Below are positions 1 to 41,778 of a stretch of 46,151 bases of DNA, piece after piece. The position numbers were made by a program, and so were the translations under genes. The stretch lies in the IMG/VR virus record IMGVR_UViG_2861079508_000006; one strand, written 5' to 3'. The notes below the pieces were generated by a model. It was not told where the DNA came from, ran no database searches, and was given only the letters and a program-made list of their open reading frames with translations. Position 1 is the stretch's first letter; the number at the start of each line of letters is the position of its first letter. Source of the DNA: a virus. Taxonomy: Duplodnaviria; Heunggongvirae; Uroviricota; Caudoviricetes.

Positions 1-750
1 TCAGTCAATTGTTTTGTTTATTCCATCTGTGACGCCGATTATTTTCTCAAAATAATGAGATGGCGTGACACCATAATAATCTTTAAATGCACATATGAAA
101 TATGAAGTACTGTTATAGCCACATTTCTGGGCTACGACATTGATAGAATAAGAGTTTGAAGTTATGAGTTTTTTTGCATACCTCATCCTAGTATCTCTCA
201 ATATTTCAGTAAATGACGTTCCTTCATCCCTTAATCTTTTTTTTATTAAACTTTCACTCGTATAAATCAATTCCGCAATATCTTTTAAATGCCATTGCCG
301 CTCAATATTAAAACTGATTATTCCAGTAATTTTACATGTAAATGTATTTATATTTGTTAGTATAAATGAATTTACACTTTCGTGTTTTTTGAACATGGCA
401 AGTAAGGATATACATAGTCTTTCTTTTAACCAAAGGGAGTGTGAGTCTGCTATTTTAATCCCTTCAAACAGAGAAAAAACAAGCGATAATGGAGGTTCCT
501 CTTCAGCAATATAGCCATTCTTATCAAGAGTAAATTTGCCAGGCAACTCATTATTCACGTCGATAAAAAAGGATAAACATGTTTTCTTATCTATATCAAC
601 AATTCTTAGTTTAGAGGGGCATACTGGTAACTCTCTTCTAATTTTGTCGCTTACAATAAACAATGAATTTTTTTTGAACGAGATAACTCTCCTGTTTATA
701 ATTAAATCAAATGATTGACAGATGAAAACTACGGAGCAAACATAATCCAT
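1..750 (-). CDS. appY: AraC-family transcriptional activator AppY
   Basis: Complete 249-aa ORF; translation matches recalled E. coli AppY and has a C-terminal AraC-type HTH region. Confidence 0.85.
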
Positions 751-1320
751 CTTGCACCTATCATAAAATTAAAACAAGTTGATAGTAGTCAAATAACAGC
801 CAATTAAATACACAATCATAATCAGGATGATGTGCATTTATATTTTTATACACAAAATTATAGTTTGCAAATTTTAATAAGTTTCATTTAAGATTAAATT
901 ATTATATGTATATTGTTTTTTATTCTAACGTATTTCAAAGTTACATTTTTCAACGCTTACTATGCTTTTTATTAACATAAACTCACTACAACGCACCTGA
1001 AACCTCTTGCTATATATATGTCAACCGTTTGAATTTAAAATAAAAAGAGTATCATTTTTACTTGCATTTCTTATCAAGTCACATTCAACAACAGTAAAAA
1101 AACATTATTAGAACCATTCAATTAACAAAAAACCAACATCCAGCTTGCTTAATTTTTCTTTATTAAACGATATTGAAAATCAATTGATAAAATACATCTA
1201 AACAACCTTTTGGGGCGCAAAAGCATAACATCAAACAAACAAATAACACACCGAAAAAACTCACAATTAATAACCTATGATATACATACTGTTTATTATG
1301 GTTGAATAAGCCACTCGATA
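751..1320. promoter_or_regulatory. AT-rich intergenic leader upstream of appY
   Basis: About 570 bp of very AT-rich sequence with no convincing ORF; resembles H-NS-silenced leader regions. No promoter elements mapped. Confidence 0.3.
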
Positions 1321-1425
1321 TCTGGTGCTACGGAAGTGTCCACACGGTTTAGCAGCACCCGATACTTTTTCCAGGCTTCCAGCAACGAGTTTTCTTCCTC
1401 CGTTGCATATACAGCTCACCTTTTT

Positions 1426-1719
1426 TCACCCACGATTAACCAACAGCCAGACCAGCAGACACGCCACCACCGGCACAGCAAAATCCATCAGGCTTGCCAC
1501 ATCCCACGCACGCGGATCAAAACCGCCCCACCACGGCATATTCATACGCTTGCCATGCCCGAACATTTCAATCCAGCGATATTCTGCCTGGGTATGTTCA
1601 CGCGCAATGAAGAACGTACAACCAGCAATCGCCCCGTAAGCCCAGTTTCCGGTAAAAAGACCAACCAGTACCTGCGCAGCCACAGCACAAAGTGCATGAA
1701 GGAAAGGTGTTATATCCAT
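1426..1719 (-). CDS. hypothetical small membrane protein
   Basis: 97-aa ORF with hydrophobic N- and C-terminal segments (AVAAQVLVGLF, VVACLLVWLLV); not recognised. Confidence 0.4.
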   Translation of the reverse strand: MDITPFLHALCAVAAQVLVGLFTGNWAYGAIAGCTFFIAREHTQAEYRWIEMFGHGKRMNMPWWGGFDPRAWDVASLMDFAVPVVACLLVWLLVNRG

Positions 1720-32087: not shown

Positions 32088-32639
32088 CTACTTTATCTCA
32101 TAAACTGGTGTTATCTCAGCGGTTGCGATTTTATTAGCATTAAGCATATAACCAACTAACGCTCCGCTGGAGTTAGAATCTACAGGAATCTTTTCAGTTT
32201 TTAGAGCCCATACTTTAAACTGGTAATGATGTGGTTTATCTCCTTTAGGAGGACATGCGCCACCAAACCCAGCATAGCCAAAATCATTTCGGCCTTGAAC
32301 AGCACCAGTCGGCAGTTTTGTTCCATCACGTCTCCCTGCATCAACGGGCAAATATGTTACTGTTGCTGGAATATTAACAACAGTCCAATGCCACCAACCA
32401 CTGCCTGTAGGTGCATCTGGATCATATACAGTTACGGCAAAGCTTTTGGTACCTTCAGGAACACCAGACCAGGTTAATGAGGGCGATGTATTACCACCTT
32501 CACACCCAAATCCAGAAAAGACATGAGACGTTGTAAGTTGCTCTCCTGTTTTTATTTCATTACTAGTGACCTGAAATGCTGCAGCCTGCGCAGAAAATGT
32601 TATGAATGCCAATACAGTTGAAACGATAAGTGTTTTCAT
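32088..32639 (-). CDS. ybcL: periplasmic PEBP/YbhB-family protein (YbcL-like)
   Basis: 183-aa ORF with signal peptide and PEBP-like motifs (DPDAP, HHY). Confidence 0.8.
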   Translation of the reverse strand: MKTLIVSTVLAFITFSAQAAAFQVTSNEIKTGEQLTTSHVFSGFGCEGGNTSPSLTWSGVPEGTKSFAVTVYDPDAPTGSGWWHWTVVNIPATVTYLPVDAGRRDGTKLPTGAVQGRNDFGYAGFGGACPPKGDKPHHYQFKVWALKTEKIPVDSNSSGALVGYMLNANKIATAEITPVYEIK

Positions 32640-33103
32640 AAAAACCTCTTTGTTATGACCTATCGTTATTTTATTTGATATTCCTTTATCTCATTATGCA
32701 TAAAGGCGCAATGTTCATGCAAAAGCAATCACAATTGTACCCCCAACCCAATTATTTGCCACAATATACACAAAGCACATTGATACTATCTAAAAACTCT
32801 GCTTTATTATTAGTAATACCTACGAAAGTCGGTGTTATTTTTTAACCTACCATTCAAAATACGTGACATACACCATTTTGCTCATAATAATTTGTCACGT
32901 ATTTTCAGTATTTGAATCTGCGACCAAGAGTTCTCACCTAACAAATGATTAAGATTGTATAGCTCATTTACTACCCCAATACAGCCGTACAAAACTCGCT
33001 TGTGGGAGCAAACAAAGTAATTACCCATTAAGTTTCGTCAAAGATAATTAATTCTGTCTTGGACTTTATCACCATAGCATAACTTAAAATCCGAGATCAT
33101 TAT

Positions 33104-34630
33104 TTAGAAATAAATCTCACCATCAACCATATATTTGAGAGCACTTATCGCCTGCTGGGCGGATATTACTTTCATTAAAGGATAGTGTTTAAAAACAATG
33201 CCATTCATAAAATAGATATCACAGGTTTTATTATCCGTATTAATTATGATTTTTTCGAATGTTTTATAGGCAAGTGTACGGCATAACTCTCGTCCATTTT
33301 TACTGGTTAAGTCAATAGCATAAAAATCACTGAATGAATTTACACCTTTACTCTTCAAAGTTTTCAATGATACCGAAGCCCTTCGTAATTCCTTATCTAA
33401 TAGTCTTATTTTCTCTGCTATAGCGGTAACTTCAGGCGCGACAGACAATGCAACGATTAAATTATTAATTTTCATCTGAAGCTCAATAATTTTTAACTCT
33501 AAAGTTTCATTAGCATCTTTCTTGTTTTCAACTGGTTGAATTTTGCTACAATTAAAAAGCAATTCATTAATGATATTATAATCAACCAAATCTCTTTTTA
33601 TTGATGGCCTGTCACATCGATGTAATCTTCTCATCGGACAAACATAATAGCCATGCAAACTTCCAGATACCGCATGAACAATCATGGTACTACCACAAGC
33701 CTCACACTTCATAACTGTTCGAAGTAGATTTATTAGCATAGGATTCTTGCTACTATTGCTAATACCAAAAGGTGCCAACCGAATTTCCTGTACAGCGTAA
33801 AACAAATCATCTGATATGACTCTGGGATAATAGCCAGCGATTTCACTTATCCCTTTCCCTCTTGCACGATATGAAGGTACGCATATACCTATCAGAGCTT
33901 TATTCGCTAATAATTTTTCAATTACAGAAGGTCCCCATGCACTTTCTTTTCCTGAGAAATTCTTTACAGCATGATCATTTAAATACTTGGCTATTGCATT
34001 CAATGAGCGCCTTTCCATCCTGAGTTTAAAAATTAGCTCAATAGTTTTCACCCTGTCGGGGTCTGGAACAAAAGCCGTTCTTTTGTCATCTAAGGAGAGC
34101 CATCTCGGACAAGACGCCGTCATAATCGTACCTGATTCCAGTGCATCCTGCCGTTTTTTCTTCCATGATAATTTAACCCGACTTGACTTTATCTCGCTTT
34201 CTTCATTTGCCCTTTGTGCTATAAGTATGGCTTTTATTAATGAATATGGCTCATTCAAAGAGTCAATATTATAGACTGTATTGTCGCAAAGAGTTATAAC
34301 ATCAATACCGTGATTCAAAATCAATTTCAGACGTTCAATCGCTTCACCGACTTTTTCTCTTGAAAGTCTGTCCAGACTTTCAACTAACAATGTAGTTCCT
34401 GGCAATATATAACCATGCTCTATAGCATCTAAAAATTCCGAAAAAGCTCCTGATTGTGCATGCTTTCCTTTGAATGCACTTAATCCTAAATCTTCATATG
34501 TTATGGTATCAAGATAATAATCACTATTTACCTTTAACCATTCAGCAATAAGTCTTCTCTGTCGGTTTAATGAGTCGCCAGACATCTGACCTGGTGATGA
34601 AAATCGCATATATGCTATGGCTTTTTTCAT
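33104..34630 (-). CDS. ybcK: large serine recombinase family protein (YbcK-like)
   Basis: 508-aa AT-rich ORF with an N-terminal resolvase-type catalytic region (candidate Ser in AYMRFSSPGQ). Confidence 0.75.
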   Translation of the reverse strand: MKKAIAYMRFSSPGQMSGDSLNRQRRLIAEWLKVNSDYYLDTITYEDLGLSAFKGKHAQSGAFSEFLDAIEHGYILPGTTLLVESLDRLSREKVGEAIERLKLILNHGIDVITLCDNTVYNIDSLNEPYSLIKAILIAQRANEESEIKSSRVKLSWKKKRQDALESGTIMTASCPRWLSLDDKRTAFVPDPDRVKTIELIFKLRMERRSLNAIAKYLNDHAVKNFSGKESAWGPSVIEKLLANKALIGICVPSYRARGKGISEIAGYYPRVISDDLFYAVQEIRLAPFGISNSSKNPMLINLLRTVMKCEACGSTMIVHAVSGSLHGYYVCPMRRLHRCDRPSIKRDLVDYNIINELLFNCSKIQPVENKKDANETLELKIIELQMKINNLIVALSVAPEVTAIAEKIRLLDKELRRASVSLKTLKSKGVNSFSDFYAIDLTSKNGRELCRTLAYKTFEKIIINTDNKTCDIYFMNGIVFKHYPLMKVISAQQAISALKYMVDGEIYF

Positions 34631-34884
34631 GGTGACACCTGCTAACGTATGCTTTTATAAACCTTAGTGGTGGGATATAATTTTTGTTTATTTTTTATTT
34701 AAAAAGACAATTAAGGTCACATTATCTTGAATATACAACAATAATCGTATTGCAATTTTCTTACGCCATAATCTTGAAAGCACAAAAGAATACATAAAAA
34801 ATAAAGACATTAACAAGAAGCATAAAACGAGGCTCATATAAATATAAGAGCCTCCATATTTTAGTCGTTTAGAAACAAATTATT

Positions 34885-35217
34885 TTAATGTGGTGTGCTT
34901 CGTGACAATAAATTAATAATCAACACACCGGCACAAATCAACATCATGCCTATAATGGCTGGCAGGTCCAGCCGTTGGCCGAAAAATCCCCATGACAGTA
35001 AGCTAATCAGGACAATACCGACTCCTGACCAGATAGCATAAGCAATCCCTGTAGGAATATAAGCCAGCGTCTGAGCTAATAACCAGAATGATGCACAATA
35101 ACAAATAATTGTACCAACAGATGGCCATAACCGTGTAAAACCTTCTGAAAACTTCATTAAGGTTGTACCAATGACCTCTGCAAGTATTGCACCACCAAGA
35201 TAAATATAAGGGTTCAT
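34885..35217 (-). CDS. emrE: small multidrug resistance efflux protein EmrE
   Basis: Start at the internal Met (MNPYIYLGGAILAEV), giving 110 aa with four transmembrane helices; matches recalled EmrE. Confidence 0.9.
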   Translation of the reverse strand: MNPYIYLGGAILAEVIGTTLMKFSEGFTRLWPSVGTIICYCASFWLLAQTLAYIPTGIAYAIWSGVGIVLISLLSWGFFGQRLDLPAIIGMMLICAGVLIINLLSRSTPH

Positions 35218-35284
35218 AGCATATTCTTTCCTGTTCAAACTGGAGAGAATTGTACTACAGTTTGAACTCAACTCACCTGTTTCA

Positions 35285-35587
35285 TCATTGTGTTCCCATT
35301 GATGTTCTTTTATATACCCTCAATACCCGTTTCATCGCGGCACTCTGGCGACACTCCTTAAAAATCAGATTCGTGCTCACCTTTCCTTCCCGTTCTTCTC
35401 TGGTAGCGAACCGGTAATACACCGTTCGCCAGACCTTACCATCAACGACCAGGATTCCTGCCCGCGCCATTTTAGCCGCAGCCTGATTTATGCTGGTTAC
35501 GGTTGCGCCTGTTACCGCGGCAACGTCCTGTGCACAGAAGCTCTTATGCGTCCCCAGGTAATGAATAATTGCCTCTTTGCCCGTCAT
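35285..35587 (-). CDS. ren: Ren protein
   Basis: 100-aa ORF matching recalled lambda Ren (MTGKEAIIHYLGTH...). Confidence 0.85.
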   Translation of the reverse strand: MTGKEAIIHYLGTHKSFCAQDVAAVTGATVTSINQAAAKMARAGILVVDGKVWRTVYYRFATREEREGKVSTNLIFKECRQSAAMKRVLRVYKRTSMGTQ

Positions 35588-37867: not shown

Positions 37868-38101
37868 TTAGGCGGCAGAATTACTCGCGTTAATCAATGG
37901 TGCAAGGTCGGGACGAATATCTGCTGGTTTAATCTTTCCACCAGTGGCTGAGACAATTTTCATTACATAGCGGGCATCAATTCCGCCACCGTGTAGCCAA
38001 CGCCAAACAGTGGGCTGGGCTACACCGCATAGATCTGCCAGTCGTTTTTGACTACCTGTAATACTGATTGCGAGTTGAATGGTTTGATTTGTCATTATCA
38101 A
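37868..38101 (-). CDS. cro: Cro-like HTH repressor
   Basis: 77-aa ORF divergent from cI with an HTH-like segment (SQKRLADLCGVAQPTVWRW). Confidence 0.7.
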   Translation of the reverse strand: MIMTNQTIQLAISITGSQKRLADLCGVAQPTVWRWLHGGGIDARYVMKIVSATGGKIKPADIRPDLAPLINASNSAA

Positions 38102-38205
38102 TTCCTATTGGTATTACAATGAATGGATAATAGCAATGCGTATTAATCCAATCAATAGCAAAACGTGTTTTGACCATCAATACGCAAGCGTATAAATTAA
38201 AACTT
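38102..38205. promoter_or_regulatory. OR-like operator/promoter region between cro and cI
   Basis: Divergent intergenic region with repeated CAATAGCAA / CTATTGG motifs and the palindrome ATACGCaaGCGTAT (38180-38193). Confidence 0.5.
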
Positions 38206-38898
38206 ATGAAAAAAGAAACTCTTGCTGATCGCTTAAACCTAGCGATGGAACAATCTGGAATGTCTCAAGGCGCTCTTGCAAAGGCGTCTGGCGTAGCTCA
38301 ACCCACAATCTGGAGACTGACAAGCGGCAACGCACGCGGCTCAACAAAAATTGTTGAAATAGCTAATGCATTGGGTGTTCGAACAGAGTGGCTCTCATCA
38401 GGCATAGGCCCGATGAGAAATGACGGTCAACAATCAGGGAAGCCTGCTGTCAACCATTCCAAATACTTCAAAATTGACGTTCTTGATATAGAAGTCAGTG
38501 CTGGGCCGGGTGTCATCAACCGTGAGTTTGTAGAAGTCCTACGCTCGGTTGAGTACTCGTTTGACGATGCTCGTCACATGTTCGATGGCAGGAAGGCAGA
38601 AAATATCCGCATCATTAACGTACGCGGTGACAGCATGTCAGGAACGATCGAACCAGGTGATCTTCTGTTCGTTGATATCACTGTTAAATCTTTCGACGGT
38701 GATGGTATCTATGCGTTTCTGTACGACGACACAGCCCATGTAAAGCGCCTGCAAATGATGAAGGATAAGCTGCTGGTTATCTCTGATAACAAGAGCTACT
38801 CACCGTGGGACCCGATCGAAAAAGACGAAATGAATCGGGTATTTATATTTGGGAAAGTTATTGGGAGCATGCCACAGACATATAGAAAACATGGGTAG
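38206..38898 (+). CDS. cI: CI-type repressor (HTH_XRE plus S24 LexA-like autopeptidase)
   Basis: N-terminal HTH (SQGALAKASGVAQPTIWRL) and C-terminal S24 region with GDSM serine and a downstream Lys. Start placed at MKKETL; the ORF opens at 38170. Confidence 0.85.
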   Translation: MKKETLADRLNLAMEQSGMSQGALAKASGVAQPTIWRLTSGNARGSTKIVEIANALGVRTEWLSSGIGPMRNDGQQSGKPAVNHSKYFKIDVLDIEVSAGPGVINREFVEVLRSVEYSFDDARHMFDGRKAENIRIINVRGDSMSGTIEPGDLLFVDITVKSFDGDGIYAFLYDDTAHVKRLQMMKDKLLVISDNKSYSPWDPIEKDEMNRVFIFGKVIGSMPQTYRKHG

Positions 38899-39004
38899 AT
38901 TATTAATGACAGATTTCATCAAGATAACCAGATGATGTTTTGGTGAGACATGCTGACATCCTCATAATTTATAGAATGGATGTTTCAAGCAGAGCTTAAG
39001 GTAT

Positions 39005-40612
39005 ATGGATATGTCAAAAAAAAATTTTGAATTCAAAAATTACCCAATAGTCTTTATTGGCTCAGGCATTTCAAAAAGATATTTAGAGAACTACCCAACG
39101 TGGGAAGAGCTATTAAACGAGTATTGGAAAATAACAAATCCCACAAATGATTTCTATAGTTATCTTTTAACAATAAAAGAATCACATAAAAATAACAGTG
39201 ATAATGATATCGATCATAAGATTTATACAGAGGCAGCAAGTAAAATTGAAAATGATTACAATCTATTGTTTAGGACTGGCAAATTAAAATTAAATGGACT
39301 AGATGCCAAGAGGGTTTTTAGTGAAGATATTTCACCATTTAAATACGCCATATGCCAAAGATTTTCTAATAACACAATCAGAAAGGATGTAAATCTTGAT
39401 GAATTAGCATCATTTAAAACATTAATAAAAAAGGCCAAGATAATCATCACTACAAATTATGATGCTTTCATAGAAAATTTACTTCAAGAGCAAAATGTAA
39501 CTCCAAAACTCTATATTGGAAATAATGGTTTTTTCGAAGATACTATTGGCTGGAGTGAGTTATACAAAATACATGGTGATATAAAGGATCCACACTCAAT
39601 AATCATAAATAAAGATGATTACGAAAAATATGACAACAAATCTATACTCATTAGTGCCAAGATACTATCTAACATGATTAAAAATCCAATAGTTTTTCTT
39701 GGATATTCTTTAACTGACAGGAATGTAAAGAAACTTCTTTCTGATTTTTCCTCACAACTACCTAGAGAAGATGGTCGAAAATCAGCTGAAAGAATAATTT
39801 TGATTGAATATAAAGAGAATGAACAGGAAGTAGTACCAAAACAGATTACCGATCAACAGCTACAAATTACATATACATCTGTTAAAACAGATAACTATAA
39901 ACAGATCTATGATGAGATCAGTGCTGTTGATGAAGGGCTCTCACCTTATGATGTTTTAAGGTATCAAAGAGCCATTAAAACACTTATCATTAATGAGGGT
40001 GAAAAAGGGCACTTAGATACTCTATTGGTTTCACCTTCTGACTTAGACAGACTTGAAGAAAGTGTTAAACAAGGAAAAAATTTAGTTGTTGCTCTAGGCG
40101 ATAAAAAGTATGTATTCACACAAGTTAAAGAAATAAATTATCTTGAAGACTACTTATTTAATAAAAATGAAATATCTAATAAATTAGCCATAGATTTCAT
40201 ATTAGGTTCAGTAAACTCATTACAACTTCCATTTTCAAAAACTATAACCTCATGTAATTTGAAAGAGTTAAGTTTGCCAGCTAAATATGTGTTAAAACTA
40301 AATCAACGCATTGAACGCCACGGAAAACTAGGCGACTTGCTCAATAAAATCACCTTAGATAAAATCAATGCAAATAAAATTTACACCAACATCAAAGATA
40401 TAAAGGATGCAAAGTTCAAAAAGTACAAAGAATTGTCTATAGTCATTAAGAACATAAAAAATATCCCCAAAGAGGAGATTGAAGATTATGTTAAAAAAGA
40501 AGCGTTTGTTCAATTCAAGGCATGCGACGTTGACAATTTAAAAACCCAGTATAGGAAACTATTTCTTGCCTACGACTTGTTGATTCATGGAAATGTTGAA
40601 AAGATAAATTAA
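39005..40612 (+). CDS. candidate SIR2-like (DHS-like NAD-binding) protein with unrecognised C-terminal domain; putative lysogen-expressed anti-phage effector
   Basis: 535-aa ORF, strongly AT-rich relative to flanks, co-directional with cI. Motifs: VFIGSGIS (aa 16-23), TTNYD (149-153), HGD (190-192), FLGYSLTD (231-238). A likely alternative start is the ATG at 39011, which has an AAGG about 9 nt upstream. Confidence 0.55.
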   Translation: MDMSKKNFEFKNYPIVFIGSGISKRYLENYPTWEELLNEYWKITNPTNDFYSYLLTIKESHKNNSDNDIDHKIYTEAASKIENDYNLLFRTGKLKLNGLDAKRVFSEDISPFKYAICQRFSNNTIRKDVNLDELASFKTLIKKAKIIITTNYDAFIENLLQEQNVTPKLYIGNNGFFEDTIGWSELYKIHGDIKDPHSIIINKDDYEKYDNKSILISAKILSNMIKNPIVFLGYSLTDRNVKKLLSDFSSQLPREDGRKSAERIILIEYKENEQEVVPKQITDQQLQITYTSVKTDNYKQIYDEISAVDEGLSPYDVLRYQRAIKTLIINEGEKGHLDTLLVSPSDLDRLEESVKQGKNLVVALGDKKYVFTQVKEINYLEDYLFNKNEISNKLAIDFILGSVNSLQLPFSKTITSCNLKELSLPAKYVLKLNQRIERHGKLGDLLNKITLDKINANKIYTNIKDIKDAKFKKYKELSIVIKNIKNIPKEEIEDYVKKEAFVQFKACDVDNLKTQYRKLFLAYDLLIHGNVEKIN

Positions 40613-40617
40613 ATAAA

Positions 40618-40644
40618 CGCCCCGTACAAAGCGATGGCGGGGCT
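40618..40644 (+). terminator. putative terminator hairpin after the SIR2-like gene
   Basis: gccccg / cggggc stem with a 13-nt loop; the following sequence is only weakly T-rich. Confidence 0.3.
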
Positions 40645-40885
40645 AATAAGTCATTTATGTATCATTTAACAACTGACTAAAAAAATACACATAAGAACTC
40701 AGACTACCAATATTCGATTAAATTTGCTGCCAACCTACCGAGCTCACCACAACCCGATGCCCCTCTGTCACGAGGCACATTAAAGCTGTACAAATTTCAG
40801 CCACACCAATAAGTCTTCATACTCTTTTTTATAAAAATTCATTTAATTATCAATCAGAACAAGTATATCAAACATTATCAATACT

Positions 40886-40935
40886 AATTGCTATTGACTA
40901 CACCAATAGCTATTGCTATTGTCATGCTATTGCAT
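40886..40935. promoter_or_regulatory. OL-like operator cluster (candidate pL)
   Basis: Four copies of GCTATTG within about 45 bp (40890, 40909, 40915, 40926); the same heptamer occurs in the OR region. Confidence 0.45.
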
Positions 40936-41116
40936 CGATGTTGGTATCACAAAATTTATAACTTCACCGTTGCGATGACCGCTTAGATCCGCAGCTTGAA
41001 TTTCAGCAGGCTCCGGGGAGTGCGAGGGGTGAAGCGGACGCGTGAACGTCGGTGTGACCAGCTGAAATCAACTCAACACTTCATACCTCAGTCGCTTCAA
41101 CGAGGCGACTTAGTTA

Positions 41117-41406
41117 TGACAACCGGCGGCCATCCACCGCCTGAATACGCGCAGAAGTCTCTATATGTTCAGCAGCCCAGCTTACGGGCAGGAGTTTTTA
41201 TGGTTCATCAACATTACGGAACGCAGACCGTTAATCGAGGTGCGGTCATGCCAGGAATGCTGGTCAAACACAAAGATGGTACCTGGACTGCATCAGCTAA
41301 TTTACGCGGACGGCTATATCTGCATCGCGGCATCGAGCGCACTTATACCCGTGATTTGCTCGTGGAAGTTTTTCTCGACGGACGCGGTAACGGCCTGAAT
41401 CACTAA
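41117..41406 (+). CDS. hypothetical early protein
   Basis: ORF 40996..41406; the internal ATG at 41117 has a GAGG about 10 nt upstream. Not recognised; coding status uncertain. Confidence 0.3.
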
Positions 41407-41481: not shown

Positions 41482-41778
41482 ATGAACGCTTATTACATTC
41501 AGGATCGTCTTGAGGCTCAGAGCTGGGCGCGTCACTACCAGCAGATCGCCCGTGAAGAGAAAGAGGCAGAACTGGCAGACGACATGGAAAAAGGTCTGCC
41601 CCAGCACCTGTTTGAATCACTCTGCATCGATCATTTGCAACGTCACGGGGCCAGCAAAAAAGCCATTACCCGTGCGTTTGATGACGATGTTGAGTTTCAG
41701 GAGCGCATGGCAGAACACATCCGGTACATGGTTGAAACCATTGCTCACCACCAGGTTGATATTGATTCAGAGGTATAA
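41482..41778 (+). CDS. gam: RecBCD inhibitor Gam (short form)
   Basis: 98-aa ORF matching the recalled lambda Gam short form ([21 protein letters not shown]...). Confidence 0.9.

Follow-up and report, generated by a model that had tools for sequence, protein, structure and literature searches.

The window analysed here, i.e. the whole 46,151 nucleotides (nt) of IMG/VR virus record IMGVR_UViG_2861079508_000006, represents an essentially complete DLP12-type lambdoid prophage. An identical stretch exists in Escherichia coli CFSAN061771, where it is flanked by appY/ompT on one side and by intD/tRNA-Arg (argU) on the other. Downstream of the cI-type repressor gene of this prophage lies an open reading frame (ORF) of the SIR2 family, which spans positions 39005-40612 on the plus strand, encodes 535 amino acids (aa), and is the subject of this study. 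An initial annotation, made from the sequence alone, described this ORF as a candidate prophage-encoded defence gene whose product consumes nicotinamide adenine dinucleotide (NAD+), an interpretation that our analysis supports. The likelier start is the second ATG at 39011 (533 aa), because both the NCBI annotation of an identical copy and the alignment of homologues begin at this methionine. The gene had been placed 107 bp downstream of cI on the same strand; the position holds, and the distance from the cI stop codon (38898) is 106 nt to ATG 39005 and 112 nt to ATG 39011. On its other side lies the second operator cluster that had been noticed before, with five copies of a heptamer over a PL-like promoter, so that the gene, on the same strand as cI and upstream of this cluster, occupies the slot of rexA/rexB in phage lambda.

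The N-terminal part of the protein (aa 1-295; 39005-39889, plus strand) is a predicted NAD+ hydrolase (NADase) domain of the immune SIR2 type (SIR2_2, or 'SIRim') with a helical lid at about aa 33-142. Its SIR2-like character, first suspected from motifs, is confirmed by the Pfam model SIR2_2 (PF13289), which matches aa 146-285 on profile positions 2-137 of 141 with 84.1 bits against a gathering cut-off of 24.5; a scan of the whole protein at E<=1 returns, apart from this domain, only one unrelated sub-threshold match. When a profile of 39 homologues is compared with solved structures, DSR2 is the best match (1.8e-14), followed by ThsA (~1e-12) and KomC (7e-12). The four motifs on which the initial annotation relied are found at the residues given there: VFIGSGIS (V16-S23), TTNYD (T149-D153), HGD (H190-D192) and FLGYSLTD (F231-D238). 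N151 and H190, which had been proposed as the catalytic Asn/His pair, align with N133 and H171 of DSR2, two residues whose mutation gave the catalytically dead control in a structural study (PMC10973363). N151 never varies among the 39 homologues and H190 is conserved in at least 90%; in homologues with 41-75% identity, the GSG loop, TTNYD and GYS show no change either. The corresponding codons lie at 39059-39067 (GSG loop), 39455-39457 (N151) and 39572-39574 (H190). In fold, the domain resembles the SIR2 proteins of antiphage systems more closely than sirtuin deacylases, and the zinc-binding module of the latter is absent, since the domain holds a single cysteine. It falls within the immune branch of the SIR2 superfamily, where the SIRim survey finds all validated antiphage SIR2 proteins (10.1101/2024.09.18.613514). 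Hydrolysis of NAD+ is the predicted activity of the protein. A different use of the same active site, i.e. ADP-ribosylation or deacylation of a specific phage or host macromolecule, or synthesis of a signalling product, with no cell-wide depletion of NAD+, appears improbable to us.

The remainder of the protein consists of two parts that differ in conservation and in the quality of their models. The linker region (aa 296-385; 39890-40159, plus strand) is conserved in sequence, yet poorly modelled by AlphaFold2, whether alone or as part of the whole protein, with predicted local distance difference test scores of 39-56 over approximately aa 320-370. It is followed by an all-alpha bundle (aa 386-535; 40160-40609, plus strand), which is modelled with confidence, forms the most variable portion of the protein, and which we propose as a sensor or regulatory module. 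Mean pairwise identity decreases from 0.66 in the catalytic core to 0.52 in the linker, 0.41 in the lid and 0.33 in the bundle. The first inspection of the sequence had recognised no motif in the C-terminal half, and neither do database searches: Pfam yields only sub-threshold noise (RBB1NT and DUF4047) for the C-terminal 254 aa, and a profile of the C-terminal alignment finds nothing in the PDB below E=0.28 and no DSR2 chain at E<=10. A profile of aa 296-535 retrieves only 105 matches from 1.84 billion representative proteins. In every full-length match a SIR2 domain precedes the module, which occupies approximately residues 290-535, whereas shorter matches span only part of the module; because of this shared SIR2 architecture we regard the module as private to the family. 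A swappable sensor shared with other effectors was also considered and rejected, as no credible fusion of the module to another effector is present among the 1.84 billion proteins. The sole context other than SIR2 is that of P0180, a metagenomic protein of 341 aa in which the C-terminal module (aa 149-334) follows the N-terminus of a DegT/DnrJ aminotransferase (aa 20-155); it is probably a chimera of assembly or gene calling.

The nature of the C-terminal half bears on the question of how the enzyme could be switched on. One rival explanation is a signal-activated effector of the ThsA/KomC type, which would respond to a second messenger from a host- or phage-encoded protein located elsewhere. 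To this we attach little credence: the C-terminus is all-alpha and resembles none of the known ligand-sensing folds, SLOG and Macro included, the similarity to ThsA is confined to the SIR2 part, neither TIR, KomA/KomB nor any other conserved neighbour occurs in the approximately 12 genomic contexts examined, which come from seven genera, and a lone gene that moves between phyla on prophages is unlikely to need an unlinked partner. A further reading takes linker and bundle together as a minimal new sensing and activation mechanism for immune SIR2 proteins, whose trigger and activation could be distinct both from tail-tube sensing by DSR2 and from the nucleotide signalling of ThsA and KomC. One possible form would be a half-size, single-chain pattern-recognition NADase for temperate phages, whose expression from the cI operon would couple its activity to the lysogenic switch; in a more radical form, the product could be something other than simple NAD+ depletion. 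We consider such a novelty doubtful.

The initial annotation allowed for the possibility that the gene belongs to an already catalogued SIR2 family, and this is the case. The PADLOC model PDLC04967 (PDC-S25) matches aa 1-528 on profile positions 1-526 of 528 with 780.8 bits (E=2e-235), and a second model, PDLC04968, with 9e-84; PHROG 2695, of unknown function, matches over the full length (1.4e-202). At NCBI the family is named 'SIR2 family protein'; a scan of NCBIfam matched no family. Hence the family is already catalogued as a defence candidate, the entry for PDC-S25 being given without mechanism or description. The PDC systems go back to genes located inside BREX, DISARM and type I restriction-modification (RM) loci, and the set comprises 145 candidates termed 'untested' by its authors (10.1101/2024.01.29.577857). 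We found no paper that reports an experiment on PDC-S25, and its sole textual mention in the literature is a passing PADLOC call in a preprint on O157:H7; the family is not described in DefensePredictor, the metagenomic selection paper, the language-model preprint, Vassallo 2022 or the Streptococcus thermophilus study. Beyond this entry, our analysis assigns the protein to the immune SIR2 clade and maps its catalytic pair, divides it into three parts, shows that its C-terminal module is confined to the family and evolves fast, sets precise limits to the cassette within a defence hotspot, and links the family to lysogeny modules of prophages across phyla.

Within E. coli, the gene is present in 166 out of 5426 complete genomes (~3%). 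Every copy is chromosomal, shows at least 99% identity and is accompanied by the same cI. The 3' half of this cI was found in 2209 of the 5426 genomes, 2043 of which lack the SIR2 gene; among the examples listed, homology in the latter ends around the cI stop codon. In one strain, E. coli PSJ-14 (locus L102, 1612-3990), the SIR2 gene is split by IS1 and annotated as two pseudogene fragments. This interruption, together with a nearly monomorphic E. coli allele that offers little within-species evidence of selection, would fit cargo that is inert or decaying and serves no function at present. Such an explanation is nevertheless extremely unlikely, because the other E. coli matches carry an intact ORF with at least 99% identity, and because homologues from two phyla with as little as 41% identity retain the full-length architecture and the catalytic residues. 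The enzyme is intact and selectively maintained.

Comparison with sibling phages that share the cro-cI-cII-O backbone delimits the exchanged segment. In blastn alignments homology breaks at 38898/38905 and resumes only at 40963, from which it follows that the SIR2 gene and a diverged OL/PL region are exchanged as one cassette (38899-40962, plus strand); the diverged OL/PL regions of the siblings keep the same operator heptamers. The cassette is AT-rich, with a GC content of 0.308; that of the ORF, which the initial annotation had judged by eye to be AT-rich, is 0.297 (0.262 at third codon positions), compared to 0.463 in cI, 0.522 in kil-exo and 0.499 in the window minus the cassette. In PhiR30_1 the slot is occupied by PDC-M63, in phage 4A7 by PDC-M11, and in PhiR5_1 by PDC-M66 (annotated HipA/HipD), all according to PADLOC; PhiR47_2 carries a pair known from its annotation as GevT/GevA and arranged like the pair of 4A7. 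Each sibling cargo that was scanned with PADLOC matches a defence candidate. The slot from the cI stop codon to beyond OL/PL is a defence hotspot, and the SIR2 gene is carried in it as a single-gene cassette.

The same slot also raises the question of a role outside defence, namely as an addiction or stabilisation toxin, as a modulator of host NAD metabolism, or as a factor of lysogenic conversion. Pairs named as toxin-antitoxin systems, GevT/GevA and HipA/HipD, are hosted there as well, and the family has not been tied to phage resistance by experiment. However, the SIR2 gene stands alone with no antitoxin-like neighbour, the family was flagged independently through its embedding in BREX, DISARM and RM loci, and the validated bacterial proteins of the same SIR2 subtype are all antiphage in the SIRim survey (10.1101/2024.09.18.613514). 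We therefore hold a function other than defence to be very unlikely.

Outside E. coli, the family comprises at least 378 clusters at 90% identity, which keep the architecture of approximately 530-545 aa. The tie to lysogeny modules recurs across phyla. In a Rac-like prophage of Kosakonia and in a lambdoid prophage of Morganella with a different replication module, the homologue directly follows the S24 repressor; in Streptococcus phage SVep1 it directly follows a CI-like repressor. In Javan227, Carnobacterium and Listeria the gene lies between repressor and integrase, and in Latilactobacillus it adjoins the integrase. Other locations are known from Bacillus, after the lysis cassette of a PBSX-like element, and from Enterococcus faecalis, beside HepT/MNT and restriction genes in an element resembling integrative and conjugative elements. 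In a seed-based screen of 33 species-representative genomes with a full-length copy, 13 had a recombinase at a distance of up to 1 kb and 18 at up to 10 kb, counts that are lower bounds; usually the recombinase lies just downstream on the same strand. No conserved neighbour is shared by the contexts from E. coli, Kosakonia, Morganella, Listeria, Bacillus, Enterococcus, Latilactobacillus, Carnobacterium and Streptococcus. A tblastn search against 50,697 phage records detected homologues only in phages of low-GC Gram-positive bacteria and no coliphage with the SIR2 gene; together with its 30% GC, this suggests a low-GC origin of the gene. The lysogeny module of Listeria monocytogenes that carries the homologue (locus L013, 3154-7605) also contains a gene for an Ltp-type lipoprotein. 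Lipoproteins of this type confer superinfection exclusion in the Streptococcus thermophilus phage TP-J34, and two exclusion or defence functions may be stacked in this module.

The surroundings of the SIR2 gene show a lambda-like immunity layout, in which a cro-like gene and cI diverge from a region of approximately 70 bp. The cro-like gene (37868-38101, minus strand) is annotated as a helix-turn-helix (HTH) protein in the identical E. coli copy and as Cro in sibling phages. The cI-type repressor (38206-38898, plus strand; 230 aa from ATG 38206) combines an HTH and an S24 peptidase and is annotated as an XRE family regulator, or as cI in sibling phages. Between them lies the OR region (38127-38198) with CAATAGC-type operator motifs and two promoters found by a promoter scan, one PR-like on the minus strand (38155 to 38127; TTGATT-17-TATTAT with TG) and one PRM-like on the plus strand (38170-38198; TTGACC-17-TAAATT). 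Both are consensus matches, and their functions are deduced from the lambda-like arrangement. As the PRM-like promoter ends 7 nt upstream of ATG 38206, the cI mRNA, judging from this spacing, would be leaderless, like that of lambda PRM. The OL cluster (40890-40932, plus strand) contains five copies of GCTATTG/CAATAGC in 43 bp, which overlap the PL-like promoter (40894-40922; TTGACT-17-TATTGT); the heptamer is also present at OR (38153) and occurs 11 times in the entire window. Further downstream, kil (41200-41406, plus strand), assigned from ORFs and from the annotation of the identical copy, encodes a kil-type cell-division inhibitor and is the first gene of the leftward early operon, followed by gam (41482-41778), bet and exo. 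No N-like ORF is found between the PL-like promoter and kil (40923-41200). A structured antitermination RNA in the PL leader of approximately 270 nt was considered and finds no support; the leader is GC-rich, but folds about as well as shuffled sequences (z = -1.0) and has no Rfam match. Nothing credible was found by Rfam between 37.8 and 41.6 kb.

Both borders of the SIR2 gene were inspected for signals of expression. The spacer between cI and the SIR2 ORF (38899-39004, plus strand) contains an AAGG Shine-Dalgarno motif (38997-39000); a terminator scan detected no terminator-like element, and its fold is not better than those of shuffled sequences (z = -0.6). Since this spacer lacks a terminator and PL, downstream, points away from the gene, we suppose that lysogens probably express the gene by read-through from the PRM-like promoter, as is the case for lambda rexAB. 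A promoter of its own within the 106-112 nt of the spacer is an alternative that we do not favour. On the 3' side, 7 nt past the stop codon, a GC-rich hairpin (GCCCCG...CGGGGC; 40619-40643, plus strand; fold z = -2.8) lacks a U-tract on the plus strand, a T-run and a terminator-like flag being present on the minus strand; it could act as a terminator, weak or effective in both directions, and so shield the cargo from OL/PL, or else contribute to RNA stability. A promoter-like match in antisense orientation inside the ORF (40513 to 40485) was dismissed as noise, as the region totals 9 such matches, fewer than the 12.7 expected from shuffling. The neighbours of the gene are cI on one side and the OL/PL-kil region on the other, and the interval between its stop codon and OL contains no ORF of at least 40 aa, no plausible small ORF and no Rfam RNA. 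Therefore no partner gene is adjacent, in agreement with the initial annotation, which had looked for TIR, HerA and Argonaute.

Other regions of the prophage are similar in composition to the cassette. AT-rich islands are present at appY (window 1-1500, GC 0.29-0.32) and in the block ybcL/ybcM/ybcK/ylcJ/emrE (window 32500-35500, GC 0.34-0.38); these are further acquired morons besides the SIR2 cassette. A porin gene and an Ail/Lom gene are also carried.

Based on these observations, we hypothesize that the PDC-S25 protein is a lysogen-expressed, single-protein abortive-infection defence in which a DSR-like NADase is triggered by a superinfecting phage. Co-transcription with cI would supply the protein during lysogeny and leave the gene outside the PL early operon. 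At rest the protein would be held inactive; a component of the incoming phage would then be sensed via the C-terminal bundle and the linker, and sensing would free the SIR2 domain from its inhibition, probably as the protein changes its oligomeric state. Such a change is proposed by analogy: DSR2 forms tetramers (PMC10973363), ThsA, KomC and Avs5 form filaments, and the PDB entries for KomC, BcThsA, Avs5 and FAM118B are helical or filament structures. As the effector, the N-terminal SIR2 domain with its GSG loop, N151 and H190 would hydrolyse NAD+, whose depletion would halt the infected cell together with the phage. We estimate the probability of this reading as a whole at roughly 60%, and rate the bare claim of antiphage defence through a SIR2 NADase higher.

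If correct, a compact single-protein SIR2 defence of ~535 aa with a sensor of its own would join DSR, Thoeris, Nezha and Kongming, and the PADLOC candidate PDC-S25 would become a characterised system. Its carriers include, besides E. coli, prophages of streptococci, enterococci, Listeria, lactobacilli and Bacillus. With a constant place behind the repressor in prophages that are unrelated and come from two phyla, the family would be a clean model for the coupling of abortive-infection genes to lysogeny and for the question of how autoimmunity is avoided upon induction. Lysogens with the gene could resist therapeutic or industrial phages, including those of dairy streptococci and lactococci. 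The gain would be incremental, given that defence by SIR2 NADases is well established and that this family has its catalogue entry already; the gene is a good and cheap experimental target, and no surprise for the specialist.

What remains is the comparison with known systems. With respect to PDC-S25 itself, the ORF is a member: it matches over the full length, belongs to the single-gene class ('S'), and differs in nothing structural. Among SIR2 proteins with a partner or a messenger, Thoeris ThsA possesses a SLOG or Macro signal-binding domain and a TIR partner (ThsB). This assignment was rejected, as the profile match covers only positions 106-218 of 478 and neither SLOG nor Macro is present; a TIR gene is neither adjacent nor annotated in the prophage, nor does one occur beside the homologues examined. 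KomC of Kongming differs as a protein of 264 aa that consists of SIR2 only and works with KomA/KomB. It was rejected along with SIR2-HerA (Nezha) and SIR2-pAgo, since the HerA, Argonaute and KomA/KomB partners are not adjacent; the PADLOC matches to Argonaute-associated SIR2 are weak (E ~3e-4) and limited to the SIR2 core. AbiH of Lactococcus is a single-gene sirtuin-like abortive-infection protein (PMC13064643), and was set aside because no AbiH model is among the PADLOC matches at E<=1.

With regard to position, the likeness to rexA/rexB of lambda concerns the slot downstream of cI, on the same strand, upstream of OL/PL and outside the early lytic operons, presumably the same logic of expression, and, as proposed, an exclusion function carried by the prophage. 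The SIR2 locus has one gene instead of two, and no relationship in sequence or fold exists. RexAB acts via depolarisation of the membrane, whereas for the SIR2 protein consumption of NAD+ is predicted. Homology to RexA or RexB was rejected, given that Pfam at E<=1 returns SIR2_2 and one unrelated sub-threshold match, and what is common is position alone. Tha, a tail-activated HEPN protein of Staphylococcus aureus prophages and phage 80alpha, is a single-protein abortive defence that is expressed in lysogeny from the cI operon, and thus a precedent both for a defence gene in this operon and for the autoimmunity that then threatens when the prophage is induced (PMC11087260). It differs in its HEPN RNase effector and in an antisense inhibitor gene, no equivalent of which is evident at the SIR2 locus.

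The closest likeness in design is to DSR2 of Bacillus subtilis, which likewise unites in one chain a SIR2 NADase domain of ~300 aa at the N-terminus, with a helical lid and an aligned catalytic Asn/His pair, and an all-alpha C-terminal region. DSR2, however, has 1005 aa and a C-terminal domain of 700 aa, whose four helical subdomains (H1-H4) bind the tail tube protein, whereas the part behind the SIR2 domain measures only 240 aa in the protein studied here and has no detectable sequence similarity to that of DSR2. The initial annotation had already remarked that the size does not fit DSR proteins of ~1000 aa; membership in this family was rejected on the grounds of half the size, an unrelated C-terminus, and the absence of a PADLOC DSR match at E<=1. 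The gene is thus a single-protein SIR2 defence candidate, DSR-like in logic, yet not a member of the DSR family.

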